DNA of 64,000 bases from contig NMRA01000166.1 in assembly GCA_002633005.1 (NCBI GenBank), positions 699,403 through 763,402 of the forward strand, given 5' to 3'. Under the pieces are notes generated by a model. The model was not told where the DNA came from. It did not search any database and saw nothing but the letters and a program-made list of their open reading frames with translations. Of this stretch, positions 325-62,948 are shown one piece after another. The DNA is from Phoronis australis (lineage: Eukaryota; Animalia; Phoronida). The first letter of the stretch is position 1. Every line of letters begins with the position of its first letter. Made by a program: the position numbers and the translations under genes.

Positions 325-489
325 TTTATTCCAATGACTTCAAATTGTCGTCATAATGATGTGACAAATTTTTCGGACACAAGCGCGAGATGTTCAAAAA
401 TGTTATACACATATCGACACACGTGCAAAACTAATCAATGGCATTGAATGGCGTGATGAGGGGAAACAAACCGAGAACTATGTGAGAAA

Positions 490-1335
490 ATGGGAGCTAG
501 AGTTTCGGAATTAGTGGATGGAGGGTGGTCAGAATGGGAGAGTAATGGACATTGCAATGCCACGTGTGGGAAACGAGGTAGACTTAAATTGATACGGCAG
601 TGCAACAATCCATCTCCAAAGCATGGTGGAAAAGCTTGTGTAGGAGTTAATGAGTCGTTGGTGACATGCCAAGGGTCATGTGTCATCACTGATGCTGCGA
701 AGGTACAGGTTACTGGAAATGAAGAGGAGGCATTGGATGGTGCAACTGTTGTCGGTATAATTGTTGGGTTACTTGGACTGATGTTGGTTACACTGGCCGC
801 GAGTTATTTTTATTATTATTACAGGAAGGGTACACCGAAAAGAGGAAAGGACAGCGCTAAACGTTCAAAACCTAACCAACGTGGGGAGGACATGAAAGTG
901 AGCAGACAAGAAGTTATAGATGAAAATGTCATGATCGAGAAAAGCATTATGAATACAAATATTGCGCATGGGGACTGCGATTCGATGTATCAAAACGTCG
1001 CTCCAGAGTCTCGACCTTGTGAGGCGCTCTTCCCGCAAATAGATGGAGGGGAAGGCAAAGAAGTTGATTCAGATCCTGTTGCTAACTTTCGGGAAACCGC
1101 TGAAGAGAGGGATTCCTTCCCGCCGTCGCCAAACACTAACGCCGCTCACGGTGAGTACGACTCAATATATAACGAGGAAGTCGCTGCTGCTCGTCCTTCG
1201 GAGGATTTGGTGAATGAAGACGAAGAAGAAAAGTCAGCCGTTGTCAACGTCATTAGTTTTGCCCAAGTTGAGGAGGTGCGTGATAACACTAACATAGCAC
1301 AAGAAATACAGTGGCACAGCAAAGCCGCTATTTAA
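490..1335 (+). CDS. Thrombospondin type-1 domain single-pass membrane protein (intronless ORF or terminal exon)
   Basis: VDGGWSEW...CNATCG...R.CNNPSPKHGGKACVG is a canonical TSP1 repeat. It is followed by the hydrophobic segment VVGIIVGLLGLMLVTLAASYFYYYY, a basic stop-transfer RKGTPKR and an acidic tail. No signal peptide; a possible phase-1 acceptor lies at 514/515. Confidence 0.8.
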   Translation: MGARVSELVDGGWSEWESNGHCNATCGKRGRLKLIRQCNNPSPKHGGKACVGVNESLVTCQGSCVITDAAKVQVTGNEEEALDGATVVGIIVGLLGLMLVTLAASYFYYYYRKGTPKRGKDSAKRSKPNQRGEDMKVSRQEVIDENVMIEKSIMNTNIAHGDCDSMYQNVAPESRPCEALFPQIDGGEGKEVDSDPVANFRETAEERDSFPPSPNTNAAHGEYDSIYNEEVAAARPSEDLVNEDEEEKSAVVNVISFAQVEEVRDNTNIAQEIQWHSKAAI

Positions 1336-4300: not shown

Positions 4301-4589
4301 AAGAGTAAACTCACTGCAAGTTTAGTTAGCATACAGGTATGACGATTTGGTGTCGAGAAGCCGTTTAGTAACTCATTTATTAGTAAAAAACGAGAGAAGT
4401 TACTTACTAGAAGACTATAAGTTAGGTGCGCATAACGTTTCAAGCCTGCAGATCAGGCCCTTGTTCACATGTCTGAGCTTCCCGTCGTTGTTGAACCGGA
4501 AGTAATATCTTGTCCTAAATGAGGGGAAGTTGTAGTCCTTGCTCATTTATTGCTACAACTGATTAACACTAATCTCCATGCTCCCTAAC

Positions 4590-5295
4590 TGTTAGAAGAA
4601 GAGTGACACTTGTTTTAGTAATATAAGTTTCATTTTGATGTTCTATTGTTTACTACCAGATATCGCCTGATTGCCGGACAAAACTCATGAGATCAGACCA
4701 GTGATGATGTAATTTGTTTAGAATGGAATACTAGAGAACATTATAGTAGATTCAAGCATATAAGTGATTAATATAGAACCGTAGTCTGGAACACTCTACA
4801 GCTTAGTATATCTTTGTAGAATGGTTGGAGAGATTTTGCAAAGTTCTAGCATGTGCTTGAATTGGTGAAAAGTTCCAGAACATTGTAAGACGCTACACAT
4901 AGGCTACCAGGCACGGGTTAGTGACAGCCGGTTGACGTAAAGTTGGGTAAAAATTAAAAATACAGCTGCAGTTGAAGTTGCAGTTGAGTTGAAGTCCCAA
5001 AAACAACAGTTACAGCGATAATTGATAAAAGATAGGTGTAGAGACTCTCGCTTATATAATCAACGAGTGTGACAATTGCTGGATGTGACCTATGAGTTCA
5101 TTGCAGGGCTTCTAAGCACTGGTTGGAGCATAGAACAGAAATTATGCCGGACGTTTTGTTTGACTTGTGTACGTACGGTAGATATTCATAAAATGATGAA
5201 CTCAAACCAGTCTTCAGTCAATCATCGCACCGAAAGCTGTTAGCAGCGATCAGTGACGACCGGCGCCCACCCATCCACGGGGGTAAAACGTGACA
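4590..5295 (+). mobile_element. Solo LTR (diverged copy)
   Basis: TGTTA...TGACA termini; collinear similarity with 30264-30815 (shared blocks atgtgcttgaattggtgaaaagtt, gcactggttggagcatagaaca, aaaacgtgaca). Confidence 0.7.
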
Positions 5296-5539
5296 AATGC
5301 TTTCACGAACAACAATAGACAGTTGTCAAAACGTTTAGAATTGCAATAGCCATGGGCATGTGTTGCACTTAGGATTGTCATTTTTCTGCATATTCACCAT
5401 TACGTAATTATTCGTTAGTTTGTATGTCTTTTTCTCTTGGATTAAGTTTCTCAACTTTAAGAAAACTTTGCATCATAAGCATTTCACTCACTCCTTTATT
5501 CCTCGAAGTTGATAAATAAATATCAATACGGAGAAAATT

Positions 5540-8500
5540 TTATTTTTTGTCTGCATTTTTGCTATCAAAACCTAGAAGGTCAGCCACTTCGTGGACAACT
5601 TCCTTAACGTCAAATTCTAACTTGAAATTTTTTACGCTCTCTGTAAGGACTTCATCAACCCTTTGCAATTCTTTGACATTCAAGACGTAATCCACATTCT
5701 CGTCGAGCCAATAGATAATATACCAGACAGTGCCAGATCTGCAAAAGAGAGTGCCCAAACTTTTAAGGACATTGGATAGTACTCCCACATAAAATGGAGT
5801 AGACGTTTTCATTGCGTCCGTGGAATCCGAAGCACGTTGTTCCCCTGTCTAAATTTAAGAGGTGGCTGTATAAGACTGAAAACCGGTGTAAACAGGACTC
5901 GGAATATCAGCCCGTAAGATGGTAAATATCATTGGGGGACGTGAGGGGGCAATTTGTCTTAGTCAAACTTTTTGCCCTACCCCCTTTCCTAACGCCACTA
6001 TCTTTGCTACCCCCCTCCCTCTACATCCATTCTCCGCATGTTGACAGTTTTGTTCAGATCCCCCACGCCCGCCACACCTGGATGCAAACCCGGGGAGGCA
6101 GCCATCAGAACTTGAGTAACCATGTTTCAACAAAGGTTCAGAGAGGGTAGGAGGGAGACAAAGGGCCAGCGCAGACAGATGGCAGGGAGAATACATACAT
6201 ACATACATACATACATACATACATACATACATACATACATACATACAAACATACATACATACATACAGACATACATACATCCGTACATACATATATGAAC
6301 ACGTATAGGCCTATACAGCCTTTCGTTAACGCAAACTTCATTAAAAACACGATTGTCGCAAAGCTTGATATACACTCGCTCACAGTCTCTGTGAATAGTT
6401 TGCTACCTTCCGGTGCATGAGCAGGTATATAACAAATTTCCAGTGGACATTACAAACAAACAAGCTAAAATAGTAGTTATATTTCGAGAGCACACATGCC
6501 TCTTCACATAGTAAAAATGAACATGGTGTAAGCGAAACAGTGAAATAAAAACTGTGACAGCATGGTAGAGGTGAGTAGCTGTCTCGCTGCAAAAAATTTA
6601 ACCAAAATCAGGTGCCCTTGTTCAAAATACACAGCAATATATCGCGTAGTCTTATTTTCCTAGCTAGCTTCTGGCGAGGTCCTAGCGTTATTGAACTCTA
6701 CTCAGGTAGAAGGGCATGCAAGCGGAAGTCCATAGGGCCAGAATGCGGGAAATCCCCGGAAGCTCCTCCTTCAGCACAGGTTTTTCATGTCTGATTAAGA
6801 TTGACTGCAAAATCTTTCATCAAAGTGTGTAATTTGGGCATAGCAAAAAGTAGTGCTGTATATTATATCTTTCCACGTTGATATAAAATATAGACCGGCA
6901 GGCCAGAACACTAAGCATAGATGAACGAGGTACCAACATCTGACCATAGGGGCACTTAGAGTCCACTTCAGTATGTACAGAAACGGATTTACGCCCTTGT
7001 CTGCACTCTGGGTGTGACCCCTGGGTACCTTACAAGGGGGAAACATGAACTAGATGAGATATTCGATGTGCCGGCCAAAACTGTCCTAAAACCAGCAATA
7101 TTACCACACTGAACACCGAATGACCCATGGCAGACAAACTGCACTCTAGAAAGGGTCCCCCAGAAACCAAAATTGAGGTAGTTCATACATTTGAGGTACC
7201 ACAAAAATCCTATTCCATATGATTCAATACATGCCACTGACCACTAAATGGCCTATGACAGACAATACACTCTGGATTGCACTCACCAGAAACCCCCAAA
7301 AATTTCAACCAAGGTATGCCACTGAACATTTGATCAAGATTATATACGAGATGATACCGGTGAAAAATATTATTTCAAAATGAATGATCGTGTCGCACAA
7401 CACCGAATGATCCATAACAATTAAACTCCAATCTGGAAAGGTCCGCCAGTTACTACGCACTTATTTTTGTATAGATACTTACAGATCCCCTGTCCTATTT
7501 AGATATCCGAATTCCTCTGCAAACACGTCCCACAAAGTAACATTCCCATCCTTATTCAGGTCAGCTTGTTCCAAATACTTCTACAATGATATGTTTCGAT
7601 ATTAAAGGTAAGCATCAAATTCAGGTGCACCCATCTGATACATTTGCGAGCTAAGGGCGAAAGCAGAAATTGTTATGAGTGTCAGGCGGGCTTTTTCCAA
7701 CACCAGACCAGTCCATTTCTGTATTGAGTCGGTCGCAAATTTTCTCAAGTGTCGATTTCATACTTTGGGGCCCGAAAACTGAATGTGGAGAATAAATCGT
7801 AAATGTTTCTGTGTGATTGGTAGATTGAAATTTATTCGGTAGATGTATTTCCTAAGACCTGTTTATCACTACGGCTTCAAAATGTTTGTTTTCTTCAACT
7901 TACATGCAAAACAATCACAGGTAATTTGAGCAAGAAACGTGTTTACTCGTAATTTAACTCAAAGATCACAACCATGACTTTTTTCAATCAATGAGGCGGA
8001 TACAATTATACGCAGTTTGTTCAGTCAATCGAATGGCTTTTAAGACGATCTCAAATGTGCGAGTACGCTGCTTTAAAAATGCGTTGTCGCTTAAGAAACA
8101 TGCTTTTTATTTAGACTGCATAACGTTATCAAATTCAACTTGTTTCTTACTTAGACGAGAAATGATGTCTAAACTTAAAAAGAACTGACAGTTTCTTTAT
8201 CGTTTGAGATCATGCTCGGCGCATGACGTGACCCGACGGGACAAGCCAGCTTGTTGAGCTAGCAATAACAAAAAGTATAGACTAATGTCACAGTTGTTAG
8301 CGATGCTAATCAAAAATTGCATTTAAAGTACATGTAGTCTCTTTTGCATTATAAAGGTTCGCTATAGAATCATGAACATGATTTTTCAGAAGTTTCACTT
8401 TCTCAAAGCAATCTGTGGTCTGGCTACAACATTAACAAAAAAGTACCGAAATAAAATTTCATACGTTGAAGTTCTTAAGGTAGTCACGTGCAAACACATT

Positions 8501-10775
8501 TTATAACAGAAAAGTTACACTTGGAAAACATTTTCAAAATCTGCTATTTTCGACAAATTCCACAAATTTTGTCGGCATGGTGATATTTTGTAACACGAGA
8601 TGATGAAAGCCTACGGAGTAAAATGAATAATTATGTTTAGTGGTAAAAACTGCCATGAGATACTGTATCTCTAAATCTTATTAACACATGTACACCGTAG
8701 GTCCATGTTTAGAGCCATCTTTCTGAACACGTGTAACAGTAGCCGTACTTTGTACAAAGGACGTAAAACTTTCCGTTTTTAACTCTTACCTTAGCTCCAT
8801 TAACTGCCCACGCATCTGACATGTTTTTCACCAGGTCTGATACAGTAATAAGTCCATCCTTATTTGAATCGAGCAATCCAAAGTACGTGCTCACAAGTGA
8901 TTTCTGTGAAAGGAAAATAATGTGACGGTAAGTACATTCCCTCTGCACCACGTGATTGCATGGTAGGAATTACGCAATCAGTTAGGGACGAACAGGAAAA
9001 AGTCCGGATCTCAGTAAAAAATCGAGATTAGGACAGGCTTAATAGCACTAAGCATTATAGTTTTTCTTCTCGAAGGCTTTTATCTGCAGCACTGCTGTCG
9101 CGCGCCTTTCAAATCTATTACGGAACGGTGACCTCTGTAATAGCGCCACCTACGTGGTAACCTCTTCTAGCACTGGGAAAGTGTGTATGTGGAACGCTTG
9201 CTGGCTCGTAAGCAGATTGACGTGCAGACCTAAATATATATGTGTGTGTGTTGCGTATGTTTTGCACATGCGTGGGCGTGTATCAAATTTTGCATTGTTT
9301 AACGCAAGACTGGGTGCTGTCACAGGTTTTGTGTGTGCGTGCCATTTGGCAAAAATGGGTCTTTGAACAACTTCAACAAAGCGGTGTCTTTAAGTTAAGG
9401 CATCCTGTCAGAAAAACAGATGATTTAAATAAAGTACTCACTTGGAAAACTCTTTGGATATCAGAATACCATAAAAGGTGCACAAAGACTGGTATAAACA
9501 TGTGAATGATTTACTCTACAAAACCAAAAGAAATAACTGAGTGTTTAAAGCACGATCATACAAGACTTACCCAAGTTTGACACTTTATGCCACAGTTTGC
9601 ACTCCTGAAATGATGCAAATAACTAAATTGTTTTGTTTTATACATGACGAAATCTTCAGAATCCGCAAATGAAAGGCGTCTGAAATGCGGAAAGTAGAGC
9701 AACAGTGATCTATTTTCCAACGCGAATGTTTTTTACAAAAGTTGAAATTTTTAGCCATATCACTACCACCCAAAACAACTCAGGTTAATCCTTTTTCATT
9801 GAATGTCACAAAATTTTTTAGAACAGTCACCATCTCCCGCTGCTCAAATGTTTTTAAACCTCACAGTTGCTGTCTTACACTTTCTTTAATTGTGTTTACA
9901 GAGTCGAATTTTATTCGGACATTTCACAGCACTACTTCGACTCCCAGAATGTATTTCTTCAAATGTCATTGTCCGAATCTCTCTAAAACCTTTTCCCCAG
10001 TGTCGCCCAACGAACATTATTTTGTTATATTGGCAAGACAAGGTTAACGAACAGGAAGTCACCTAAGAGCTTGTCACTTGTATCGTGGGTAGTAAGATAT
10101 TGCCTAAACCATGGGCGGCGCACCATAGGGGGCTGGGGTGCGATAGCCCCCCCACTTTTTTCACTGCTACGTTGCACATGGTCTATAGGCGATGCACCAC
10201 AGGGGAGCTATTTTTCAGTCCTTACAGAGTCGAAAGATTATTCCGAAAGGCTTGAAACTGTGTACTGTTCTTGAAGTCATGTGACGCGCTCAGGAAAAGT
10301 CCCACGGATACTGTCATACTTACCAAACATTGAGTAAGAAACGTCATTTACCATAATGTATAGAAGTTAGAATAAGTACTTACGAGTTCTTTAGTGCAGT
10401 CAATATTGTATCCACAGTCTCTTTGGCTTCCATCTTTCCATTGGGTTGACCAGCCGCTCTTTTAACAATTGGCTGTGCTCTTTTGACCACCGTGGCATTG
10501 GCTAGCTGCGCTGCTCTTTTGTCCATTGTTTCAAGAATAATACTCGGCATTGGTCTTTTGACCACTGGGTCATTAGCTAGTTTCGCTGCTCTTTTGTCCA
10601 TTGTTTCAAGAATAATACTCGGCATTGGTCTTTTGACCACTGGGTCATTAGCTAGTTTCGCTGCTCTTTTGTCCACTGTTTCAAGAATCACACCCTGTGG
10701 TGCTCCTCTGTTGACCAGGGATGCTGCGGAACAGACGGCCAAAACAAAGGCAAAGACGACCAGCAAGACTTTCAT
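5540..10775 (-). CDS. Secreted precursor: signal peptide + KR-flanked peptide repeats + EF-hand (SCP/calexcitin/aequorin-like) domain, about 282 aa
   Basis: Exons 10384-10775 (ATG at 10775, acceptor ctacag just upstream, donor TC|gtaagt), 9571-9604 (ttcag/gtaagt), 8790-8903 (tttcacag/gtaaga) and 5540-5848 (tttag, stop TAA) join in frame with phases 2, 0, 0. The product has signal MKVLLVVFAFVLAVCSA, seven KR sites, EF loop DSNKDGLITVSD and a second EF-like loop DENVDYVLNVKE. AATAAA lies at 5495-5500. Confidence 0.72.
6192..6292. repeat. (TACA)n microsatellite
   Basis: Directly visible; source of the spurious MYVC ORFs. Confidence 0.97.
7100..7450. repeat. Degenerate tandem repeat within an intron
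   Basis: Recurring cactgaacaccgaatgacc...ctagaaagggtcc-like units at about 7107, 7235, 7320 and 7400. Confidence 0.5.
10509..10675. repeat. 75-bp coding tandem repeat (25-aa unit AAKLANDPVVKRPMPSIILETMDKR)
   Basis: Identical units start at 10509 and 10584, with a partial unit at 10659 and degenerate flanking copies. Confidence 0.95.
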
Positions 10776-11171
10776 TATAGTGACCTGTAGATTGAAATGT
10801 TTATACGTACACACAAATTTTAGACTCAGTGTGGCTAGATATCCTAGGAATATCAAAATTTTAAGTGATTTAATCGGCATGAATAAAATGCGCAAAGTTG
10901 AACTGAATTAAAAAAAATCATCTCTGACAATATTTCAACAGTTTGCCGGAGTTTTCTTATAAAAATATTTTAATTCTCTTAAGCGAATGTGGTTTTCTTT
11001 TGCTTTTGTGTTCAAAACATCGGCGATTCCAATTACCCTCGACTTCCGGACTATTGAACCACATGACTTTCAGGTATCACCTTACTAGTAAGCTTGACTC
11101 CAGTTACTGCAAATTATATTTTTAGCAATAAAAATTAAAAAAATAAAAAGCTCTCTCTGCCGGCACGTATA

Positions 11172-11177
11172 TTTATA
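11172..11177 (-). promoter_or_regulatory. Candidate TATA box for the EF-hand precursor gene
   Basis: TATAAATA on the minus strand about 400 nt upstream of the ATG. A possible non-coding first exon ends at a gtaagg donor near 11085. Confidence 0.3.
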
Positions 11178-11989
11178 GTTCACGTATGATGCCCAACACC
11201 TTAGTACTCGAGTGATTATTACCCCCTCCCCCGNCCCCCCCATAAAACTGCATGAGGTAGCAGTTACAATTATCAAGTTGTTCGGTTTCCAAAGCAAATT
11301 CGCACATTAAAAAAGCGAGGTTTGTATTATTATGCCACCAACTGAACAAGATCATCAACAAAACACAGTTTTAATTTATCGATGTTTTTTTTAAATTTTC
11401 ATATTTTGTATTTCGGGCTTTGCCTAGTAAAAGTCTGCAAAATATGTTGCGGTCACAAAATTAGTTTTTCCGCTTTTTCGTTCACGGTTAAACAGAGGCA
11501 CTACACTTGAAATAATGTTAAATTTGCAGGAGTTGCTTAAAACACTCGTCTATTGATGAACAAAATCCTTTTGAAAATGGATTAATTACGTTTCTACGTT
11601 CACCGATTTTCTTGCGGCGGTGTAAGTAAACGTATAGTGTTTTGGCTTACACACAAAAAGTTAAACCGTTAGTTTTTTATGTTTTGGTTTGTTGCCCATC
11701 GTGTTTTATATGAAAAAATTAGACAGTCAACGACTTAATTTTTGAGGTATTTTAGTTCGTTTTTGACGCCTAAAATTTGCGTCAACATCCAAACTTTAAA
11801 ATCTTCAGTCAAACTAAAAGTACTTGCGTCAAAACCTCAAGTCGAATTTAAGATCACTTTCTTGAAACAGAGTTGACTAAAATTTATTGTTTGTTCTAGG
11901 TAAGACAGTTTTTCTTGGAAAGAGCTCCTGTGCTCGATTTCGTTTCCAAATGCTTATTCTAGATAGGTTTCTCTGCCAATTTGCTTCGG

Positions 11990-14900
11990 CTCTTCGTCTC
12001 TTTTTCTCACATATATTCAGAAGATAAGTCTAGCTTTTGACAATTTCACGTCGGCTTTGATCAACACAACACATGCACTGCCCGTGTCGACCATTACGAT
12101 GGCGCCTAATATGGTATGAGAAAAACTGAGCCACCACAACGTAGATCAAAACCAGAAACATGGTTTGATAGAGAATGTCATGATCATAAGTTAATATTAC
12201 GTAGTTATTTAAGGAAATACAGAAAATATGGAATTGAAGAAAATTTGGCTAAATATAGGGAATATAACAAGAGATATAAAAATTACTAAAAACAAAACTA
12301 AAAAAAATTTCCGAGAAACACTAACCAAAGCATTGTTGGATTCTTCGTTGAATGAAAATAAGAAACAATTTTGGAAATTGGTGAAAGATAACAAAGAAGA
12401 ACGGTCTTCAAATATTACACATACACAATGGTATAACAGTTTTAAAAACGTTTATACGTCTCACAATAGAGACTATGATGTATTTTTTTTCTCAGTTTCA
12501 TGTATATGTTGAACAGTTTAATCACTTCTATGAGTCAGAAGAAGCGGTGCATAACTTGGATGATCAGACAGTTTTTAATGAAATTATTACTTTTGATGAA
12601 GTAGATAAGTGTACGAATGACATGAAATTGGGCAAAGCTGCTGGAAATGATGGCATTTTGTTGGCAACACCCGCATTTAAACAGTCTCTCGTTTGTCTGT
12701 ATAATAAAATTTTTGATACGGGGAATTACCCATCTCAATAGAATTCAGGTATTACAGTCCCGGTGTTCAAGTCTGGAAATAAGAATGACCCAGATAATTA
12801 CAGAGGAATCACGCTGTTACCGGTGGCTGGCAAGGTATTTGCCCGGTTGTTATGTAACCGACTCCATTCATGGGCGGATGCGAACAATATTGTGTGTGAG
12901 GCTCAAGCTTGTTTCAGGAAGAGGTATTCCACAGTGGATAACATGTTTATTCTAGATACACTACAAAAAAGGTTATGTCCAACCTTATTTAGTGGCCTCC
13001 ATTCTAACACTTATATCAAAAAACTAAGCTTTGTCAACTAGTAAAAGTAGACATTTTATGGAAGAACAAAGACCAGGAAATATAAATATACTTTTTGTAT
13101 TTATTTGTCATCATTATTTTCACGTAAAAAGCTTTTTTAAGTAAAAATTTCATTTTTAAGAAAGGTACATTCATAGCAAAATAACCCCTCGGTCGATTTT
13201 AACGAAACCTTTTTTAAATGAAAACTTCATCAATTACCTCAAAAACGCTATTAGGAATTTTCGATTAGTTTGTTCGTTTGGTTTTTATGACAAATCAACT
13301 CGCAAAACGTAAGGTATTTTTGTAAAAAATTGAAGTCGTATTCGTCTTTGTCACATTACACAAAAACTAAGCTTTTATATCAAAAATCCTAACATAGTTT
13401 TTGAGATTCGTGACTAAATATTAAGTTTGGAAAGTTTCAGCGAAATCCATCGAGCCATTTTCGAGAACTCGTGTTCCTAAGTTCAAATAAAGTCGATTTG
13501 CCGAAGCCGAGAAAAAAACGATTAAACTGGAACACGTGAAAATCTCTAAGTCTTTGGTTAATTATTCTGTGAAAACTTGTTTTCGGTATACATTTCCTAT
13601 AGAATCCTTAACTATGTCACCTATTTCAATGTTTTCTTGCAATGTCAACTAATTTTGCAGTGCGTAACTAACTTAAATATCATTAAAACCTCAAATAGAC
13701 CTATCTTTCGCAGCCAACTTTTGCCGTTTTGTACGACCTACTTAGAAAAGTAGGTCACAGTTCATATTCTGTACACGTCACGTGCTGGGAGTCTGATACC
13801 AAACCAAGTAAGAAATGGATAACAAAAATTGAATTGGTGGTTAAAGTAAGTCGTTAACATGAAATCGAAACATCGAAATGTTAACTTAATAACTGAATTA
13901 AGGAATAAGGGGGAGGATTTATCTATTTTCACAACTTTCTGTGTTCATGACCAGACTGAGGCCTGAGGCAACTCGTAGCATTTGTTTTCAACGTCAACGG
14001 TCGTATGCATGTAGACCCACAACTCCCTTAGGATAAAAACTACGTTTTGTATTCGTTTTCCCCGGGAATATTCTATCATAACCACACCTCGTTGGTTCAA
14101 TGTTATGGCGAATTTGTGAATGAAAGGACTGAGGGTATACCGAAGCTGTTCTGTACCTGGCGGGAGACTCGATTTACTTGAAAGCCCTTTAACCTTTGAC
14201 CTTGGATAAGTGCTCAACAAATAACCAGGCGGTTGTGCGCTTCCAAGGTGGTTCTGCTAAATCTTTTTTTTCTCGCTACGCAGTATATATTTCGTATTTG
14301 AAGTTTCCCGAGAATGAAGATAAGGTATTTTGCTAGACACAAGTGAAATTTTGTAAAAATGGCCAGTTTTTGTGAATAAGGTTGGAAATATCCTTAACAA
14401 ATACCTATTGAAACGTAGAGGACGGTTCTAGTTGTCTTTTTATTGACTTTAAAAAAAGCGTTCGACTTGGTTTGACGAGAGGGTCTTAAGTATAAAATAT
14501 CAAGTTTTGGAATATATGGAAAAAAGCATAAAATTTTAAACAGTATGTATGACAATGTCTTGCGTCTTGCTGAATGGGGATCGTTACGTAACCGATTTCT
14601 TCCAATGTACGATGGGCGTAAGACAAGGGTGTCAATTATCTCCTTTTCTCTTCTCGCTATTTATAAATGATTTAGAAAGTGATTTACAAAATGTAAAGGG
14701 CTCGTGTCTAAATATTGGAATATTGAATTTATATTTGTTGTTGTTTGCCGATGATTTGGTTCTCGTCGCTGAAACCGCTATTGCCATGCAAAGATTAATT
14801 ACCAAACTAGAAGAATATTGTAATAAATGGAAGCTTCATGTGAATATGTCGAAGACAAAAATTATAGTCTTTAGAAAAAGGGGATACTTGAGAACTTATG

Positions 14901-15995
14901 AAAAGTGGAAATTATTTGGCGAAATTGTACAAACGACTTCAGAGTATAATTATTTGGGTATCAAGTTTACTCCTAAAGGTGTTTTTCTTACGAAGACGCA
15001 GAAAACGTTAGCGGCAAAGGCTATTTTTGTACTAAAAAGCACATGTTTAAGTACAATGAAATTCCTGTGCAAATGTGGCTTAAAATGTTTGATACAAAAA
15101 TATTACCGATCGTTAATTGTTATATGGTTCTGAGATTTGGGGATTTCACTCCGCACAAGACATTGAAATCGGACAAAATAAATTTTGGGAATTTTTGTTG
15201 GGACTTGGCCAGCATGTCTCAAACGCTGCAGTGAGGGGAGAGTTTGGTAGAGTGACAATGAAGGTACATCTATTATTGAGAAATGTTAAATACTGGTTAA
15301 AAGTTATCAATTTGCCAAGCCATCGTTAAGTTAGGGTATGCTACAATGTGCAATATGAAATGGCTGAGCAAAATAAGTCTTGTTGGGCTCTAAATGTGAA
15401 AACGATTGTTATTTGCTTATGGTTTTGGAGGTGTTTGGATACAACAAGGTGTGGGCGATGCTGCCTCATTTATAAGTGAATTTAAACAACGATGCTTTGA
15501 TATTGACATCCAGGATTGGAGAAACAATGTTTTTTCTCAATCTTTAGATGTTTACAAAACAATTAAATGTAACTTTGTAGTAGAAAAAGACGTAACATGT
15601 TTAGAAAATAGACTTCATAGAATAGCCCTTGCAAGGTTTAGATGCTCCGCACATTCATTAATGATTATCCAGGGAAGGTTCAGTGGATTTGACAGAGAAG
15701 ACAGATTATGTCCCTGCTGTGACAGTGGGAAAGTGGAAACAGAATTCCACTTTCTTCTCGAATGCAATTTATATTCGGTTTTTACCAAGGTACGATAAGG
15801 TGGAAGATATAGTATTCAGAAATTTTCTACAGACTCATGACTTAAATGTTGCTCGATAATTAATTAATGCGGAGAAACGCCGAAATAAGTTCCTTGATAT
15901 GAATTAATTTAGACTTGAAAATTTTGTTGTACTCTCTTTGTGTTATATATTGTAATGTGGGCCGGAGGCCTCAGTGTTACATGAAATAAATCTAT
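11990..15995 (+). mobile_element. Degraded non-LTR retrotransposon (RTE-X/CR1-like LINE ORF2), interrupted by a DNA transposon
   Basis: Frameshifted RT motifs KLGKAAGNDG, DPDNYRGITLL, EAQACFRKRYSTVDNMF, FIDFKKAFD, GVRQGCQLSPFLF and LLFADDLVL. C-terminal RLCPCC...ETEFHFLLEC. 3' end has a ggccggaggcc hairpin and AATAAA. Confidence 0.92.
12969..14395. mobile_element. Non-autonomous DNA transposon (~1.4 kb, possibly Kolobok-like) nested in LINE RT
   Basis: 21-bp terminal inverted repeats (aaggttatgtccaaccttatt / aataaggttggaaatatcctt, 19/21 match). The RT reading (..ILDTL | NKYLLKRRG..) resumes on the other side. The right end reads cc|ttaa. Confidence 0.85.
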
Positions 15996-22319: not shown

Positions 22320-23945
22320 TAGGAATAGACCACATCTTGATCTGTATAGGGTAATTGTTAGAATTGGAACTTAGAACGTAGAATTGGAATCAACATCGGA
22401 CTGCCACCTTTGCAAAACACAGTCCTTAACACGTTGTGAGAAAATATTTACAAACGACTCGACATGCGACTCGTTGGTTTACCCAAACATCATAGAAACC
22501 ATGCATTGACAATAAATTACGAAGTGAACTTGCCCAATTATACATATGTCTACCATTTTCATCTAGTCTGTACAACATGTTGTAAACGGCTCTTTGATAA
22601 CGCTCCTGTGGCATATTCAAAATTTTAAACCAGTATTTAATACAGCTAACAAAGTATCTCGTAAACATAGGGTATCTGCCAGATTCACCCAATACTGCAA
22701 CGTTAGAGTTAGAACCGCCTAGTCGTAGGGTCCATTTAGAAAATTTTAATTGATTTTTTTGGACACTCGTATTCTTTAAAAGCCCAAGTCTCGGCCCCAT
22801 AACACAATGTTGGATACATCAGTTTATCAAATAATTGAAAGGCAAGTGATGGGGGCATATCGCGACAAACACGTGATGCAGCTTTATTTGCTTGACAAGA
22901 GAGAGAGTTTTTGTCGCTTTCGACAATGACAGTTTAAGTGTGATAAGAACACAAAGATGTTTATAATGAGATACATCATCAACTTGCTATTTGTTAAAAA
23001 ACATTTCTCACAGTGTCTTAAGGGATCACCATTTCTAAATACAATTATTTTGGTTTTCTTTAAATTCACGGCCATACCCCATGAATTACAATAATCGAGA
23101 CAGTTTAACATAGTTGCAAGTTAGACGCTGTTATAGCGCATAATATGGAACGCCTCTAGCGTCACCTTATGACGGGTCTTTTCTGTGAAGTGTAGCACCC
23201 TGCAAAAGTACAACGGTGGCTTCTGCGTTAGATTCGCATGTACAGTCAAAATGATATAAACGAAAGACTGTATTTTTCAAATAAACGAGGGCAACGCTGT
23301 GAGGACTTGATGTCTGTGACCTTGGATGATTTTCGTACGTGCTGTGTCCACAGTTGTTGGGTTCTTGTAGGTTCTATTTGCTTAATCAGCGAAGATGTAC
23401 TATCATTGCTCAGTGGAGACAGGACATTGTGTAAGTTGTGTTTTTGTGTGAGACGGTGCTAGCCATTTTTTCTTTTTTGTCAAACGTTCAGCCTATGTAA
23501 TTGTCAGTCACGTCAAAACATGACGATCCCATTGGGTTGGTCAACACACTGTATAACCTTAACACTGATTGGTTCTTTTAAGAACATCGACAGCATCACT
23601 GACGCGTCAGCGTGTAGTAGAAATGCCTCGTCATGTGTCAGAAAACACCCGTCATAAGGTGACGCTAGTGGCGTTCCGTAGCATAGAACCATGTCATCTG
23701 CATATAACAGTGAATTAATATTTGTAGCATGCTCATCTAAGCAGATGCTATTTATGTCACTATGCGAATTGAGTTTTTCTAGAAACTCATTGAGATACAA
23801 AACAAATAGCAGAGGGCTTATCATACAGCCTTGACGAGTGCCAATAGTGCAATTAAATAAGTCTGTTAAATCATCACGTGTTTTAACACATGATGTCAAC
23901 TTGCTATACGTTGATCGCAGAATTGATAACATGTTACCAAGAATG
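22320..23945 (-). mobile_element. Degraded LINE RT fragment
   Basis: GTRQGCMISPLLF, LLYADDMVL, VNLKKTKIIVFRNG, AVLGESGRYP, IKYWFKIL; multiple frameshifts. Confidence 0.9.
23144..23680. mobile_element. MITE with ~42-bp TIRs inserted just after the RT YADD motif
   Basis: tatggaacgcctctagcgtcaccttatgacgggtcttttctg and its reverse complement at the right end (3 mismatches); flanks gcataa/gcatag. Confidence 0.9.
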
Positions 23946-24127
23946 TTAGCATAATAAGGACTATGTAAATACAGGAATTGTTATTAATTTATATTGTTAC
24001 AGTTACTGAAATTGAAATTTAAATAGAGGCCCCTATATATGCGTGATTGTTTTGGCGGTACCGGTATTAATTCAGTTTGTCCAATCTGTGTTGTGGTCGT
24101 GTTTACTAACCACATACAGGACCGTAA

Positions 24128-38200: not shown

Positions 38201-39427
38201 TAGTTAATATGGTGAAATATTGGCAGATATTTGAAGAATTGTAAAGAATAATGACATCAACTTAAAATTTCGGGCGTTAATCCTGCTGCGACTTAGCATC
38301 ACGGAATCGTGCCTGTGGACTGCCTTGCGATCCGTCATCGGCCTGCGACGTTTTACTTTCGTTTTATTTTACGTTGTTTGTATCTAATTCAAGTAAACAA
38401 AAGCCATAAACGATCTAAATTTTTCCATGGATGACAACTTAGATTTCTTTTAAGACGTTTTACACTTGTCATCTTTAGAAATCGCGAAAAACTTATGTAG
38501 GGTGCTTTTAAGGTTTGTTTTTACGGCACCTTAACTTTTACACAATTAAAATTTTGGCCGCCGGGTGGAGCTCATTGCTCCTGATGATAGTCCATCCACC
38601 ACAAATTTAATTATCGGTGACTTTTCATATTGGCGCAATCTAGAGTAATTAGGACGTGAAAGTGACTTCCGATTGCTCCCGACTCAGATTCCGCAATGGA
38701 CAGAAGCTCATTTACTGCATAGTGGTTCATTGATCTAAGAACAATGGAACAAATCCCCCCTGTCAGCCCCTCCAATTGTTTGATTAGTTTAAGTGCATTA
38801 ATTTACTTTAGCTTTTTAACATCGCCTGGGACAGATTCTTCTTCGCAGTGTAAAATGTTTGGAACATGATGTCATTGTTCATCCATTGCTATTTCATAAA
38901 GTTTGCCTCTTTCCGTAAGGCATTAGTACACCCCACAGACAAATTGCCGGCTTCATGATACCAGGAAAGGTGATTACACCAGTAGGTTGAAATCTTGCGT
39001 ACGCATTACGTAGGATCTGCATGTGGTGCTGAACGCCTGTCCACCATTCCAGATCGCCGTCTGGCGGTATAGTGAATTTCAATATGGCGTGGCTATTTCA
39101 CATTCCACTCTTCTAATAGTTGCTGTCTTCTGTCTTTAATCACCATCAACAGATCGACGTCGTCAAAATCGCGCTCAGTGTTATTAGGCCTACTATTCTT
39201 CCAAGTCACTATAATGTCTTTAGGTCATAGTCCAGAACATAATGCATTGACGTATTCTGCTCGTCAAGGGTTAGGCTATTGCATTGCTGTATCATGTGTA
39301 GAACAATGCTTCTTGAAGTCTCCTGAATAGTTTCATAACAGGGTGAGAACTCATTAGGTCTTCATAACACAACGAGATCCGCTTCATGTCGACGTTATTA
39401 AACTAAAAGGCATGGTGTACTGTTCCC

Positions 39428-39474
<47 letters not shown>

Positions 39475-39768
39475 TGAAGTCACGCGTCCAAGTTTTGAGA
39501 AGTTCGAAATTTATTTTTCATCTTAGGAATCTCCAGACCTGTTTTGCTTATTGTTTGAATATTGCAAAATATGAAAATGCCAACTGTCCTCCGTTTTACA
39601 TACCCTTTATTCTTTCAGATGCTCGCCGACTACGCTGCTTTTCATGCAGAACTCAGACAGACAATGGCTGTGGGAGTACGTTTGCTTCCACAGGATCCAG
39701 CGTAGAGTGCGAAATGTTTGATGAGGAGAAATCTTGCTTAAAGATACACTACTACGACAAGGAAACAG
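35249..39768 (+). CDS. Ly6/uPAR (three-finger, quiver/sleepless-like) secreted protein, partial (2 exons found)
   Basis: Exon 35249-35300 (MRLAYMTLVLTTLASCI, donor A|gtaagg, phase 1) joins exon 39619-39768 (tctttcag acceptor; ARRLRCFSCRTQTDNGCGSTFASTGSSVECEMFDEEKSCLKIHYYDKETG; donor G|gtagga). The LxCxxC...C...C...CxK spacing matches the N-terminal half of a Ly6 domain. The final exon with the CN motif was not located. Confidence 0.68.
35813..36151. mobile_element. MITE with ~22-bp imperfect TIRs (Kolobok-like) in the Ly6 gene intron
   Basis: ttaaaggcaatagcacggtcccggat ... atccgggaccgtcttattgcttta. Confidence 0.7.
37387..38062 (+). mobile_element. Split direct repeat terminus (B1-A-B2) of a Ngaro/PAT-like retroelement
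   Basis: Identical 171-bp direct repeats at 37387-37557 and 37892-38062 bracket repeat A, which also occurs at 19855. Confidence 0.6.
39429..39470. repeat. (TG)n microsatellite
   Basis: Directly visible. Confidence 0.97.
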
Positions 39769-41482
39769 GTAGGAGGTACACCGACTGCCAGTGCAGTATT
39801 TTTATTACTAACTAAATGTGCTACAGCTTAGAACCCCCTCAAAACGGGCTGATAAAATTGAGAGTCGGGTGGGCGAAAATTGCAGCTACCAAGTTTTCAT
39901 AGCTTAGGCGTCTATAGAAACGTTTTAAGGTTTAAACATGTTAGCTTTAGTAACAAGAGCAACATAAGGCGTTGGTATGCGCCCATAGTGCACCGCAAAC
40001 GGAATGTTTCAACATTCGCTTTTCAGTTTCAAAAAATGTTTGCAATAAAATCATTCTTTGTATATTTCTGAGCAGTTTTACCAAACTACCTACAGAGACG
40101 TGACTGTAACAGATGTGAGACTGTGGCAGTTGCTTAAGCGAAGTTTTAGTATCCGATGTCTAATGAATTTTTAACCGAAAATGTGCAGAGTTAAAATGTC
40201 GTGACAGCCTAAACATTCACACCAGTGAGCAACGCATACTTAAAATTTCTTGAGATTACGATGCTGGACTTCATTTAAAAAATCAAACTGACGTCTGTTA
40301 CAAAATACAATCCACAGAAAGCACCTCGGGTATTGAAGTACCCAGAGAAGCCACAATTCATTGTCAACATCTATCCAACATAGCTTAAAAGTCACCTCCT
40401 GGTACATGGGAATTAACATGGACCTGCAGTCATAAACATGACACTACTCACATTGATTATAGGGCACATGTCGAGTAGAATTGAGCAGATGAAATTGTTG
40501 AAATCTATAATAGGGATGACACACATTTTGTTTTATTAGAGGGCTTTTCAACTAAGTGCGGTATTATGTCAAGATATTGGAAGTTTTCTAAGTCAAACAA
40601 AAGTAATTCCACAGGTCTCGTTTTCTCGTCTTTCAAAAGCTCTGTATTGATAAAATTGCTTGTTTGTTGATTACTGTTGTAGAATTTAAACTGTGCCAGC
40701 AACAGAAGTAAACTCTTCTTCTAGTTAATTTTTGTCAAAAATTTTAATGGAATAATTCACTATTTCAACGCATTAAACCTAAAAGTGTGTTCTAAAGGAT
40801 TTCATCAGTGTTCATCAATTTCTAACAACTATAAATACTTTGTGGGAAAAATGAAAGACTGAACCATTAGAAAACTGGTAATGAGTAACAGTTGATACCA
40901 CCATCGCATCGCTTTCCGTCAACAAGTGATTTTTAATATAAAAGTTTGACTATTACTTCACAAAAACAGGAAAAAAGAAGCAATTACTCCATCAGTGGAC
41001 CCCCCTCCGTGAGTGGCTTCTTATAAAAAATAATAATAAACAAAAACATTAAAAGGGAAGCCATAGTTGCCATCAACAAGTCAATCCAAGAGCTTGCATT
41101 TATTTCAAATGATATGCTATTTCATAAAAAAAGAAAAAAGAAATATTAGAGATGATTCCATTATGTGGTGTTAATCTCTGGATAAATACAGCTCTGAATC
41201 TCGTATGAATGATTTTTGACTTTAAAAATCTGAATCAATTTGTCCTGGGAAATATGTGCTTAACTAGTTTTCTCGGACTTCTTTAAAGTGTGTACAAATA
41301 AGGGCACTTTTCAAGTGAGTATAGACAACCCACACTACAAACTTCATTGGGGACCTCTAAAGGATAGATCCAACACTGGTAGCAAACATTTTTTTCTGTT
41401 CTACGTGTTTCGCTATGTCGATTGTACCTGGCCCCGCCCTGCACCAATGCCGGTAGCCACGAAGGTTTCATAGATATATATT

Positions 41483-47419: not shown

Positions 47420-47975
47420 GGGCCTAAAGTACAACAAACAGCAATACACAAGCTGTCCCGTTTTTAGATGCGTAGTATACATATTTCACAACTGATTATC
47501 AGGATTACATAACAGTCTATGAAATCTAAACAAAGAGGGATTTGTCCAGAGGCTCTCACTTAGAAACTTAGCTCTGATTTCGGAAAAAGCTTCGCAAACT
47601 AACAAAAAGTGATATTTATCCTCGAGCATAATGTACACACTCTGTCTTGATATATCACATTTACGTGACGACCAGTTTCTACTGCCAGTCTGTGGTTTGC
47701 ACATCGAAAACGTGTAAAATTTTGCACGAACACTTTTGGAAGATTATCAATTTCTAAATAGTTTTCATGTTCAAATACAACCTTAAATTTTTCATAATAT
47801 TTTAACTTAGAATCGGAATCAACATCGGACTGCCATCTTTGCAAAGTACAATCCTTAACACGTTGTGAGAAAATATTTACAAACGACTCTTGACATGCAA
47901 CTCCTTGGTTTACCCAAACTCTATAGAAACCATACATTGACAATAAATTGCTGACTGATCTTGCCCAACGACAGT
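47420..47975 (-). mobile_element. LINE 3' fragment, same family as 22320-23945
   Basis: FTRFRCANHRLAVETGR...RVCTLC...EDKYHFLLVC; 47815-47968 closely matches 22386-22537. Confidence 0.88.
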
Positions 47976-49345
47976 TTAGTGTCCTATTGGATCGCGCGCG
48001 AGTCCCGCAAAACATGCTGAAAAGTACCGACTAGCCGTAATTTCTGGTACCCGCCTGCGGCATCTTGTCAATATGATTGACCCCCGGGTCAAAAATGAGC
48101 TTTTAGTACGATAAGTGGCATAAATCAACATGCTTTTTAGTCCAATGCGAAATCAATAGCGAGCCGCTTTAGTCGTTGGGCCAACTTGGGCTGCTGTGAC
48201 ACTGGGGCCTGTAGACTACCATAGATGAACCACAGTAGAGGACCAAATTGACACAAGCAAGAATTATCTAGATAATTTGGACAAAGTGTGTCAATTTTGG
48301 GCCGATAATAGTGACCCAACTGGTCACATTCCATTCATTACTATTAAAATTCAGAAACAATAATTACGATTATTTTGGTGTTGACTTTAGCCTACATCGG
48401 TGCGATAATTAAGCAGTTGCTCCTGTCTGTTAACATAGACCATTCTTAATATAGATGAGCATGAGACATTCTTTATTGATTACATATTGGTTGCCAGTGT
48501 CGATGTAACTTGTCTGCAATGATTCCTGAAGGCAAGTTCTAGTTCTGACGTCACGACGACCCAGTGATCTCTGGGCTGGTCTCGCACACTCGTTCCTGTG
48601 TTTCAATAACTGAGTACAAGCATAAATCGATGGCAGAATTTATTCAAGGTCATAGATACGTGAACGTACAAAAAATCTCTAGAACTGTTACCAGTTAGGT
48701 ATACGAACTCAACTCCAACGACTGAGATAGCAATACGACTTGATTGTGGCCTGCTGCTCAAGCCTCGTTTTTGGCATCAAAATATCGACCTTGCATTAAT
48801 TTTAAGAATTGCCTACCAAATTTGGGTTTTGAATTGTTTGGAACTAAAACTATAGATAAGGTTTTACGAGGTTTTACAAATTTTTTTTATTTTTCCACAA
48901 ACATCAGTATAAGGTCGTTGGGATGTTGTTTGACAAAGAGCTGCTGAAAACGATAGCAAATTCTCGACAGAAAAATTCTTGCTTTAGACTGTCAAAGTAT
49001 TAACTTTCAGGATTTTATTTTTCAGAAAGAGAAGAAATCGAACGATCTTGTGGGAAAACGTCAGGCGACGGCTTGTGTCAGAAAACTACGTTTCGGGGTG
49101 ATAAGAATGCTTTAATATGTGCATGTGAGAGCGATAACTGTAACAAAGCACTTGAGCTCTTATCTCCGAAAATCCTGGTCACGGTTTTAGCCTTAGGTGT
49201 GCATTGCGTAACAGTGTTATGACTGCCCCCACATAAGTAACCAACAGCGGGACGGAAGTCGCTCGAACCCATGCACTCCCATGTGTGCACTGAACTTCCT
49301 GGCAAGTTCTAAATTATGTACTGCACTTGAAAATAAAGGGGTACT

Positions 49346-61500: not shown

Positions 61501-62948
61501 GCTTCAATCAAGTGTGTTGCATTCGTTCTGTGATTTCCAACACACTCTCCTTCAGCACGCTCCACAAACAGTAGTTAAAAGGCCAAGGTCAGGCAAAGGA
61601 GGTGACTGCAAAACTATGCTTAACAGGATTAGACTTGAGGAACATCTTGATGTCTCATTGTAGACAACTAAATTTAGGGAAATTGCATGAAGGTAATTGT
61701 GGTAAGTCTGCTTGACTACCGTACCTGTTTGTTGAAGCCGTGCCTCTCCTCAATAACAAATGTGCTGTACAAACTGAAGGGCAAGCCAGTCACAGTACTG
61801 TATACGGAAGCTAGGACCACAAACACGACAGACTGAAGAATCTGAAAAGAAAGGGTAAAGTAGAAATGGAGAAATAATTTCACAAAGCCCAAGTCTAATA
61901 GGTTCAAACTTCCTACGCTTAGCAACTGAAAAACTAATGGAGCTATGAACTCGTGTTGATTTAGACAAGGAATAAAAATCTTAAAAAAGCCTTTTAAGAT
62001 ACTTGCCTCATACTCAGGACCATAGTCGTACTTAGCCAGCAAGTATCCAGACACTCTCCACAGCAAAGGGATACCATAAAACCACAGAATAAGCTATGAA
62101 GAAGAAAACTGGTGTTAACATGCACTGAAAGCGTTCCATTTCCATACAATTAGGCGTATAAGCGCATAATAACAATTGACTTCTAACAATGTGATGACAG
62201 TTTTCAACTACGGCAATCATATATGGAGAATTCAGGTGATTTCATCTATGGTGCAGCTGTCCTTTTTCAAATGCATTGTGGGATGGCTGCCGATTCATAA
62301 ACATCTGGTGACAATGTGGACAAGTGGGGAATGTGCAATTTGATTGATAATCTCTGTTTTGGGTGGCATTTTAGGTAACTTCAGCAAGCTCTTGATGGCA
62401 CATGCCTGGAGAATCTCTCACAGAAAGGATAATGTTGCAGTATGATTTGATGCATTTTGAGGCTCATTTTCAATCATTTCATTTAGTAAGCCTGTTGCAC
62501 TTGAACTGTGAGCTCAAACATCAAGGGCTGATTTCCATCATATTGCTTTCACACCAAGCTACCTGTAATGTCACCAGATGCTTACCAGCCAACTACTGCA
62601 GCATCGTAGATGAATTCCCCACAATGTCTGCCTCAATAAATATCTGGTAAATTGTACTAATACCCAGTCTTGACCTTTTATCTCACATTTAAACCAAAAT
62701 TGTTTTTCTAGCTTGAAAAGTAAACATTTTGCAATAAAAAATGTTCCAACATGTCACTCTTGCGTGAGAAAGGAATATAAGTGGGATAGAAAACAACTTA
62801 CAGTAGATTCCACCTGAGACCACAGCCCTGACCAAAATCCAAAGTTACTTTTGTCAAGCTGATACAGTCTTGCCTTGTTAAAGGTATCTTGATCCAAAAC
62901 ACCAGTCAACTCATTAGGAACCTCGGTGACAGTTTTCAACAGATAACG
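55587..62948 (-). CDS. ZMPSTE24: CAAX prenyl protease 1 homolog (zinc metalloprotease STE24), 9 coding exons; first exon not found in window
   Basis: Phase-compatible exons at 62802-62948, 62007-62093, 61725-61841, 60052-60204, 58860-59001, 57802-57986, 57384-57512, 56520-56660 and 55587-55805 (stop TAA). The translation has STE24 hallmarks: [61 protein letters not shown], the zinc motif [13 protein letters not shown] and [10 protein letters not shown]. All acceptors are AG; donors are GT except one GC. Confidence 0.97.
57047..57290. repeat. Degenerate minisatellite in ZMPSTE24 intron
   Basis: Recurring agggctttgggaa.aa.agctt and gaactttgac units. Confidence 0.75.

Follow-up and report, generated by a model that had tools for sequence, protein, structure and literature searches.

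A five-exon gene occupies positions 5540..10775 on the minus strand of the window, the 64-kb stretch of DNA that was analysed (Table 1). Its open frame encodes 278 aa, and GT/AG ends are present at all four introns. The gene is real, and the exon model of the initial annotation needs correction. The RNA data consisted of three raw-read runs (X1, X2, and X3) of strand-specific 151-nt reads, and a junction was listed only if supported by at least three reads at two starts. Library polarity was checked on a plus-strand neighbour gene, where first mates lay on the opposite strand.

Table 1. Features of the gene, in window coordinates
Feature	Coordinates	Strand	Evidence
Exon 1, coding part, 392 nt	10384..10775	-	ATG at 10775, donor GT at 10383; strand-specific reads, junction to exon 2
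Predicted signal peptide, aa 1 to about 17-18	10722..10775	-	Rule-based: hydrophobicity, small residues at -3/-1
Pro-region, aa 19-106 (88 aa), seven KR sites	10458..10721	-	Sequence
75-nt (25-codon) tandem repeat, three copies	10463..10710	-	Spacing 75, 75
Exon 2, 34-nt microexon	9571..9604	-	Reads across both junctions
Exon 3, 114 nt, first canonical EF-hand	8790..8903	-	Pfam, PDB EF-hand proteins, pattern match
Exon 4, 98 nt, second canonical EF-hand, missed in the initial annotation	7483..7580	-	Junction reads on both sides; Pfam; pattern match
Exon 5, coding part, 199 nt: non-canonical third loop, predicted helices, stop 5542-5540	5540..5738	-	Acceptor 5738 from reads; helices from low-confidence model
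AATAAA, candidate polyadenylation signal, 40 nt past stop	5495..5500	-	Sequence

The junctions 10384/9604 (8 reads in X1 and 2 in X2) and 9571/8903 (14 and 6 reads) were both found, indicating that the microexon is real and that transcripts do not all end at the TAA at 10380. Both joints and the microexon had been proposed in the initial annotation, which named such an ending as grounds for rejecting its model; in X1 and X2, reads splice past it. An alternative acceptor at 9601 is also in frame, but the listed joint fits 9604 instead. The proposed four-exon model of about 282 aa, whose GT/AG ends and open frame were reproduced by computation, was right in these two junctions but wrong in the third. 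Its last junction, 8790/5848, is absent from the listed joints. Reads instead run from 8790 to 7580 (5 in X1 and 7 in X2) and from 7483 to 5738 (3 reads with one start in X1; 4 reads with four starts in X2), giving five exons and 278 aa, so that the 110 bases at 5848-5739 are intron in the read-supported form. The aligner placed the joint from 8790 to 7580 one letter off with an identical skipped length, which we infer to reflect a base difference at the first position of exon 4 in the reads.

RNA depth over the gene was low, and same-strand reads within the introns had a depth of about 0.6-1. X3 had no depth on exons 1-5; the gene or a close copy is thus expressed in two of the three runs. 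The distance from the signal peptide to exon 2 is spanned by no read (151-nt reads against a 392-nt exon 1), and a form without the signal peptide is also compatible with the reads.

Exon 1 codes for the predicted signal peptide and the KR-punctuated pro-region and extends 24 codons into the predicted mature domain. The N-terminus is the most hydrophobic stretch of the protein, with a Kyte-Doolittle value of 3.4 over 11 residues compared to at most 1.3 beyond residue 30, and by rule the small residues at -3/-1 permit signal-peptide cuts after aa 15-19. The KR sites lie at aa 36, 48, 61, 73, 86, 98, and 105, followed by Ala at five sites and by Pro at two. Seven KR sites in residues 20-106 were matched by none of 100,000 shuffles, a contrast that is inflated by the tandem repeat. 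The first two repeat copies differ at 1 of 75 bases, indicating that the duplication is recent. The hydrophobic N-terminus and the KR-punctuated repeats were thus as first described. None of the seven sites is preceded by an amidation Gly. A furin-type R-x-K/R-R motif is likewise absent from all seven, and cleavage would therefore need PC1/PC2-type enzymes. The 278-aa protein has no KDEL-like tail and no transmembrane or second hydrophobic stretch. The calculated pI is 10.7 for the basic leader versus 4.6 for the acidic mature domain.

The predicted mature domain comprises 172 aa. Its canonical EF loops are at positions 48 and 81, and a third, non-canonical loop is at 119. A PROSITE-type EF-hand pattern, scanned over all six frames of the window (approximately 128,000 residues), matched in exactly two places, 33 residues apart, in exon 3 (8870) and exon 4 (7562). 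Loop 1 (aa 154-165, 8870-8835) and loop 2 (aa 187-198, 7562-7527) both have Asp at position 12, and loop 2 contains an N-glycosylation sequon. The two form a pair of 12-residue loops with ligands at positions 1, 3, 5, 9, and 12, Gly at 6, and a hydrophobic residue at 8, as is typical of the EF superfamily. Pfam matches were below the curated cut-offs (EF-hand_6 on exon 3, E 0.0014; EF-hand_5 on exon 4, E 0.014). The loop of exon 3 had been recognized in the initial annotation, but the loop taken there as the second (aa 225-236, 5704-5669) fails two pattern positions and is the non-canonical third, the true second being in the missed exon 4. The supposed degenerate loop at aa 108 fails three positions and its entering helix would sit in the pro-repeat, so a fourth, N-terminal EF-hand was discarded. 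WD40 and dockerin matches of exon 4 were dismissed as short-motif likeness.

The mature domain has just two cysteines (aa 135 and 139), both encoded by exon 2, and four N-glycosylation sequons. Exon 5 modelled alone gave three or four helices at low confidence (pLDDT 60, no alignment). With this lone-exon model (pLDDT 60), Foldseek gave no match at E 0.001, and the best VIA-align matches were unrelated helical proteins (Z up to 6.0), with no EF-hand entry among the best 50. Exon 3 modelled alone gave two helices and no open loop (pLDDT 75, pTM 0.34); a reliable fold is not to be expected of a lone EF-hand modelled without an alignment.

All homologue queries were single exons, and their shortness makes blank results weak evidence of novelty. 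A word-index protein search, limited to longer proteins, confirmed 0 of 60 candidates for exon 5, 0 of 443 for exon 1, and 0 of 3 for the exon 3 stretch. With the 65-aa exon 5 as query, HMMER gave no match at E 0.001 among 1.84 billion representatives in a full scan, exact look-up of five ORFs found none, and no metagenome contig stretch was confirmed for exon 1 (0/316) or exon 5 (0/344). In the ESM Atlas, nothing usable was obtained for exon 5; for exon 1, all matches scored <0.9 and were to secreted proteins of fungi, among them an alpha-factor precursor cluster (0.81), which is a lead at best. No description of the protein was found in a search of the main texts of papers, mostly from outside subscription journals. 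Judged from its sequence, the gene apparently represents an orphan family whose architecture is otherwise a variant of a known design and whose function is predicted.

On exons 1, 3, and 4, the majority of reads differed from the window by several percent, whereas the neighbouring gene matched at 99% or more; a neighbouring exon with a depth of about 300-440 had one fixed difference among those listed. At least five places in exon 3 and at least eight in exon 4 differed in most or all reads; at position 8797, for example, the non-window letter was carried by 8 of 10 and 13 of 13 reads. These differences indicate that a second copy or allele exists and is diverging fast. At the listed sites of exons 3 and 4, one or two reads per site in X1 and none in X2 kept the letter of the window, so that expression of the window's own copy is weakly shown. 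Among the differences listed, the amino acid was changed in 12 of the 15 codons touched, close to the neutral non-synonymous share (164/210), and the calcium-ligand positions were spared (0 of 9), which is not significant (P = 0.12). Depth over exon 1 bins rose when the likeness threshold was relaxed from 90 to 80, although the bins differ between the two settings. No paralogue of the gene was found within the 64-kb window.

It may be that the copy in the window is an almost silent duplicate and that expression comes from a paralogue elsewhere, since most exon reads carry other letters in runs that match the window at 99% at the neighbouring gene. We regard this as a tenable minority reading, which is compatible with the function proposed below for the family. 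The frame and all four GT/AG introns are nevertheless intact, a few X1 reads keep the window letter, same-strand reads occur in the introns, and a divergent allele would also explain the data.

The gene probably codes for a secreted precursor in which a KR-rich leader is cut by convertases and the released domain binds calcium outside the cell. The initial annotation had proposed a secreted, proteolytically released calcium-binding protein, and the combination of a secretory precursor and an EF-hand domain fits the sequence, better after the exon correction; nothing specific was found for the roles it suggested in venom, luminescence, mucus, or mineral formation. A P1' proline affects convertase cleavage, and Asp at EF loop position 12 affects calcium affinity. 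The predicted signal peptide would take the precursor into the ER, where the mature part may be N-glycosylated at its four sequons and a disulfide could form between aa 135 and 139. Convertases would cleave the five KR sites that precede Ala and probably spare the two that precede Pro, freeing the acidic domain, whose paired EF loops would bind calcium extracellularly. Before cleavage, the basic leader would likely act as a mask or chaperone for the acidic domain. Asp instead of Glu at position 12 would give a modest affinity suited to millimolar extracellular calcium and to a structural or release-triggered role rather than that of a cytosolic sensor. A short propeptide extended by recent tandem duplication, not a conserved hormone set, is the most likely nature of the leader. 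The family to which the gene belongs is likely small, fast-diverging, and restricted to its lineage, and would act in a secretion or in extracellular matrix. A more far-reaching version seems rather unlikely: an undescribed multigene family, restricted to its lineage, whose secreted products are effectors switched by calcium and in which a three-EF-hand domain is held inactive by an amplified basic leader, convertases release several active 25-residue peptides, and the copies diverge as fast as defence, venom, or gamete-recognition proteins.

It is unlikely that the gene is a true prohormone whose repeated peptides are bioactive, with the EF-hand domain as a co-released carrier or granule-packing partner. 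Models for such partners are neurophysin for vasopressin and nesfatin-3 for nesfatin-1. The predicted signal peptide, the seven regularly spaced dibasic sites, and the repeated units are those of a neuropeptide prohormone, but the amidation Gly, a common though not universal feature before the basic site, is missing. Furthermore, the repeats look very recent, two KR sites are followed by Pro, five short motifs of the protein were found in no paper in a literature text search, and the rise in exon 1 depth at relaxed likeness, with its differing bins, suggests that the repeats are not the conserved part. Precedents do exist. A snail giant-interneuron gene, reportedly that of Bogdanov et al. in 1998, is one by its title; it is said to be Helix HCS2, with amidated peptides, unlike the present repeats. 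Nucleobindins (NUCB1/2, the nesfatin precursor) combine a signal peptide, dibasic sites, and EF-hands, as here, are kept back to pre-metazoans, and have a leucine zipper (PMC9004410). The tandem KR-repeat leader sets the present gene apart from nucleobindin, and single-exon searches gave no sequence link to NUCB. In the annelid myoactive-tetradecapeptide gene (Pomatoceros contig 102), a peptide region is followed by a C-terminal EF-hand predicted by InterPro, also as here (PMC2762978); that gene has one conserved tetradecapeptide, in contrast to the unamidated recent repeats and the two canonical loops plus a third described above. The view in the initial annotation that no family with this architecture had been described was therefore too strong.

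A luminal calcium buffer or sorting protein kept in the secretory pathway, like nucleobindin or the CREC proteins, is very unlikely. The signal peptide, the acidic domain, and the probably low-affinity loops would suit ER or Golgi calcium, but there is no KDEL/HDEL-like ending and no transmembrane stretch. CREC proteins have six to seven EF-hands and often an HDEL-type tail, compared to two canonical loops and no such tail here. Luminal housekeeping calcium proteins are conserved and broadly expressed, whereas the present gene had low depth, with none on its exons in X3, and its copies diverge quickly.

The domain had also been called SCP/aequorin-type. SCPs are cytosolic and lack a signal peptide, unlike the signal-like N-terminus seen here by rule. 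The domain resembles annelid SCP (PDB 1q80, 2scp) in size (172 versus 174 aa) and around one EF loop, and the reported gap-free match of exon 3 to the first EF hand of annelid SCP is real locally. In the PDB comparison, however, the best matches of exon 3 were KChIPs (E 1e-6), and annelid SCP was in fourth place (E 9.3e-5); exon 3 scored about equally on the first and last loops of SCP and barely matched the photoproteins berovin (E 0.68) and mnemiopsin (E 0.92). The SCP likeness is, on sequence grounds, a generic one-loop match and does not indicate SCP identity. Exons 1, 4, and 5, as short queries, had no SCP or photoprotein match at E up to 10. In SCP, an active loop at the N-terminus is separated by an inactive second hand from a C-terminal pair of active loops (16/104/138, positions taken from the 1q80 alignment); the layout of the present domain is different (48/81/119). 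An SCP- or aequorin-derived domain recruited to secretion, possibly as a photoprotein or luciferin carrier, is a very unlikely reading.

Secreted EF-hand families arose several times in invertebrates (Orpins, shell proteins, and nucleobindin), and few have a tested function. A pearl-oyster shell protein, reportedly that of Huang et al. in 2007, is, by its title, another extracellular invertebrate EF-hand protein; nothing found in the present gene points to a mineral role. Orpins of sea cucumber, other echinoderms, and hemichordates are lineage-restricted, predicted secreted, acidic proteins with two EF-hands and close paralogue pairs, all of which recalls the present gene (bioRxiv 10.1101/2020.05.22.110411). 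They differ in length (122-123 aa, with a C-terminal EF pair, versus 278 aa with 80 residues after loop 2) and, in the sections of their description that were covered, no KR-repeat leader is mentioned. Orpins have Glu at -Z, compared to Asp in both loops of the present protein. The residue that follows the odd loop is Trp in Orpins, and loop 1 here is followed by Leu. The even loop of Orpins is non-canonical and lacks Gly 6, in contrast to the canonical loop 2 here.

The general design of a signal peptide, dibasic sites, and EF-hands is already described in other precursors, namely, nucleobindin/nesfatin and the annelid peptide gene. To this design the gene adds the repeat-expanded, predicted convertase-cut leader and the odd loop layout, and the reads hint at a second divergent copy and at expression specific to certain samples. 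The gene alone does not open a long-standing question; it would be a compact case of a calcium-binding fold recruited to secretion and gated by proteolysis.

The initial annotation had described four minus-strand exons, and their GT/AG ends and open 282-aa frame are present. RNA data carrying the same species label as the window, namely three raw-read runs (X1 to X3, about 18 to 19% of each sampled) and one contig set (X4), were mapped on positions 4500 to 12500. The reads bore out the junctions 10384/9604 (8 reads in X1 and 2 in X2) and 9571/8903 (14 and 6 reads, respectively). The proposed junction 8790/5848 did not appear in X1 or X2, and reads from 8790 instead joined a missed exon, exon 4, with 1209 bases skipped (5 reads in X1 and 7 in X2). 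From 7483, reads continued to 5738 with 1744 bases skipped (3 reads in X1 and 4 in X2). None of these junctions was found in X3 or X4 within the mapped region. With five exons, each of the four introns is bounded by GT/AG, and the frame stays open over 278 aa. First mates of all exon reads were on the plus strand, opposite to those of the plus-strand neighboring gene, indicating that the RNA is minus strand. The EF-hand gene is a real gene, corrected from four to five exons. A noncoding exon upstream of its ATG is possible.

Features of the window (window positions)
Feature	Positions	Strand	Remarks
EF-hand gene, exons 1 to 5	10384-10775, 9571-9604, 8790-8903, 7483-7580, 5540-5738	-	coding parts of exons 1 and 5; exon 2 is a 34-nt microexon
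Acceptor-like site	10785-10806	-	ends 9 nt before the ATG; no junction listed there
Repeat elements	10040-10210 (intron 1), 6600-7400 (intron 4), 4690-5210 (downstream)		both-strand reads in all runs
Large exon of neighboring gene	460-1335	+	weak TSP1 match
Exon, weak quiver/Ly6-like match	39402-39815	+	Pfam QVR, E 0.0038
CAAX prenyl protease exon, STE24-like	61719-62093	-	Pfam Peptidase_M48_N, E 6.7e-16
Broken LINE-type retroelement pieces	12385-15798, 22426-23980, 47599-48030		reverse transcriptase match 14540-15130, E 4.2e-20; others by resemblance

The X1 and X2 runs match the window's organism; 2347 and 1787 reads, respectively, were at least 99% alike to the window, versus 77 in X3. Depth over the large exon of the neighboring gene (taken over ~460-1400) was 290 to 440 in X1 and 240 to 320 in X2, with at least one fixed difference. 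In contrast, most or all reads differed from the window at no fewer than five places in exon 3 and eight in exon 4, and among the differences listed, X1 reads show substitutions together with a deletion of 3 bases near the start of exon 1, at its 5' end. Since the neighbor is near-identical while the EF-hand exons differ, the source of most of the exon reads is either a paralogue or an allele that has strongly diverged. The junction evidence therefore holds for the family, and for the window copy through shared splice sites. No second copy was found within the 64-kb window. Among the differences listed, 12 of the 15 codons touched had an altered amino acid, near the proportion expected under neutrality (164 of 210 sites). 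None of the nine ligand positions was changed, an absence that is not significant (P = 0.12).

The large neighboring exon encodes a likely transmembrane segment and an acidic tail in which two tyrosine motifs resemble each other. It was strongly expressed in X1 and X2 and nearly silent in X3; the EF-hand gene, which is convergent with it, has this on/off pattern too. The window has a GC content of ~38% and a CpG observed/expected ratio of 0.82. Its spliceosomal introns, its LINE remnants and the nearby exons of TSP1, quiver-like and CAAX-protease type indicate an animal source, conjecturally a marine invertebrate.

The sole strongly hydrophobic stretch of the precursor is residues 1 to ~18, a signal peptide by rule-based prediction that agrees with the small-residue rule. 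The dibasic pairs of residues 19 to 106 are all KR, seven in number, followed by Ala at five sites and Pro at two; none of the seven is preceded by Gly or is of the furin type. This leader consists of three copies of a 75-nt unit, the first two differing by 1 base, and its pI is 10.7, versus 4.6 for the predicted mature domain. The product probably behaves like a convertase-processed secreted EF-hand precursor; every step beyond splicing is inferred. The signal-like N terminus and repeated dibasic sites are prohormone hallmarks, but the amidation Gly is absent; that the leader peptides are true hormones is unlikely, because the recent origin of the repeats and the lack of amidation signals favor an expanded propeptide. 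Neither an ER-retention tail nor a transmembrane stretch is present in the precursor, and a luminal buffer, a quite improbable reading, fits less well than a secreted, convertase-cut precursor.

The predicted mature domain comprises the 172 aa after the last KR. It carries four sequons for N-glycosylation, and its two cysteines, spaced four residues apart, both lie in the microexon. A scan of the six frames of the 64 kb with a PROSITE-type EF-hand pattern matched only in exon 3, at aa 154, and in the missed exon, at aa 187. Asp is the last residue of both loops. A second EF-like loop had been proposed at aa 225; its positions 1, 3 and 5 are still Asp, Asn and Asp and its position 12 is Glu, yet positions 4 and 6 depart from the pattern. 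It is possibly a third, weak hand. The supposed degenerate loop at aa 108 fails at three pattern positions and does not stand.

Searches with single exons as queries found no sequence relatives, and exon 1 gave only subthreshold look-alikes in the Atlas search. Exon 3 matched many EF-hand proteins in the PDB, with KChIPs first and annelid sarcoplasmic calcium-binding protein (SCP) fourth; on SCP it scored 10.8 bits at the first hand and 9.4 bits at the last. Exons 1, 4 and 5, searched singly, had no SCP or photoprotein match in the PDB. Loops start at 16, 104 and 138 of 174 in SCP, whereas those of the mature domain start at 48, 81 and 119 of 172. The SCP/aequorin-type label was not sustained, because the loop layout differs, KChIPs match exon 3 better and the other exons, each searched singly, lack an SCP match; an SCP or photoprotein derivative is very improbable and a poorer fit than the secreted, convertase-cut precursor.

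A literature search found no account of this precursor; PMC5627052 contributed just a citation on nucleobindin, and PMC6425005 had no more on the subject. By its title, a 1998 snail paper reportedly places neuropeptides and an EF-hand region in one gene, a related title names HCS2, and an oyster EF-hand protein is said to be extracellular. Nucleobindin unites a signal peptide with dibasic sites and EF-hands (PMC9004410), as the window precursor does with its signal-like N terminus, and gives rise to a C-terminal product that binds metal (PMC10308643). A tetradecapeptide gene from an annelid carries a predicted EF-hand at its C terminus (PMC2762978). Echinoderms and hemichordates have small, predicted secreted proteins with two EF-hands, the Orpins, whose defining residues differ from those of the precursor (bioRxiv 2020.05.22.110411). 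The features compared do not place the precursor among SCP, aequorin, nucleobindin, Orpin or CREC proteins.

In the most probable reading, that of a secreted, convertase-cut protein, the precursor would enter the secretory pathway, where PC1/PC2-type convertases would cut at the KR-Ala sites. Cleavage would free the acidic, glycosylated EF-hand domain, for which the basic leader probably acts as a mask or chaperone, and the freed domain would load calcium in granules or outside.
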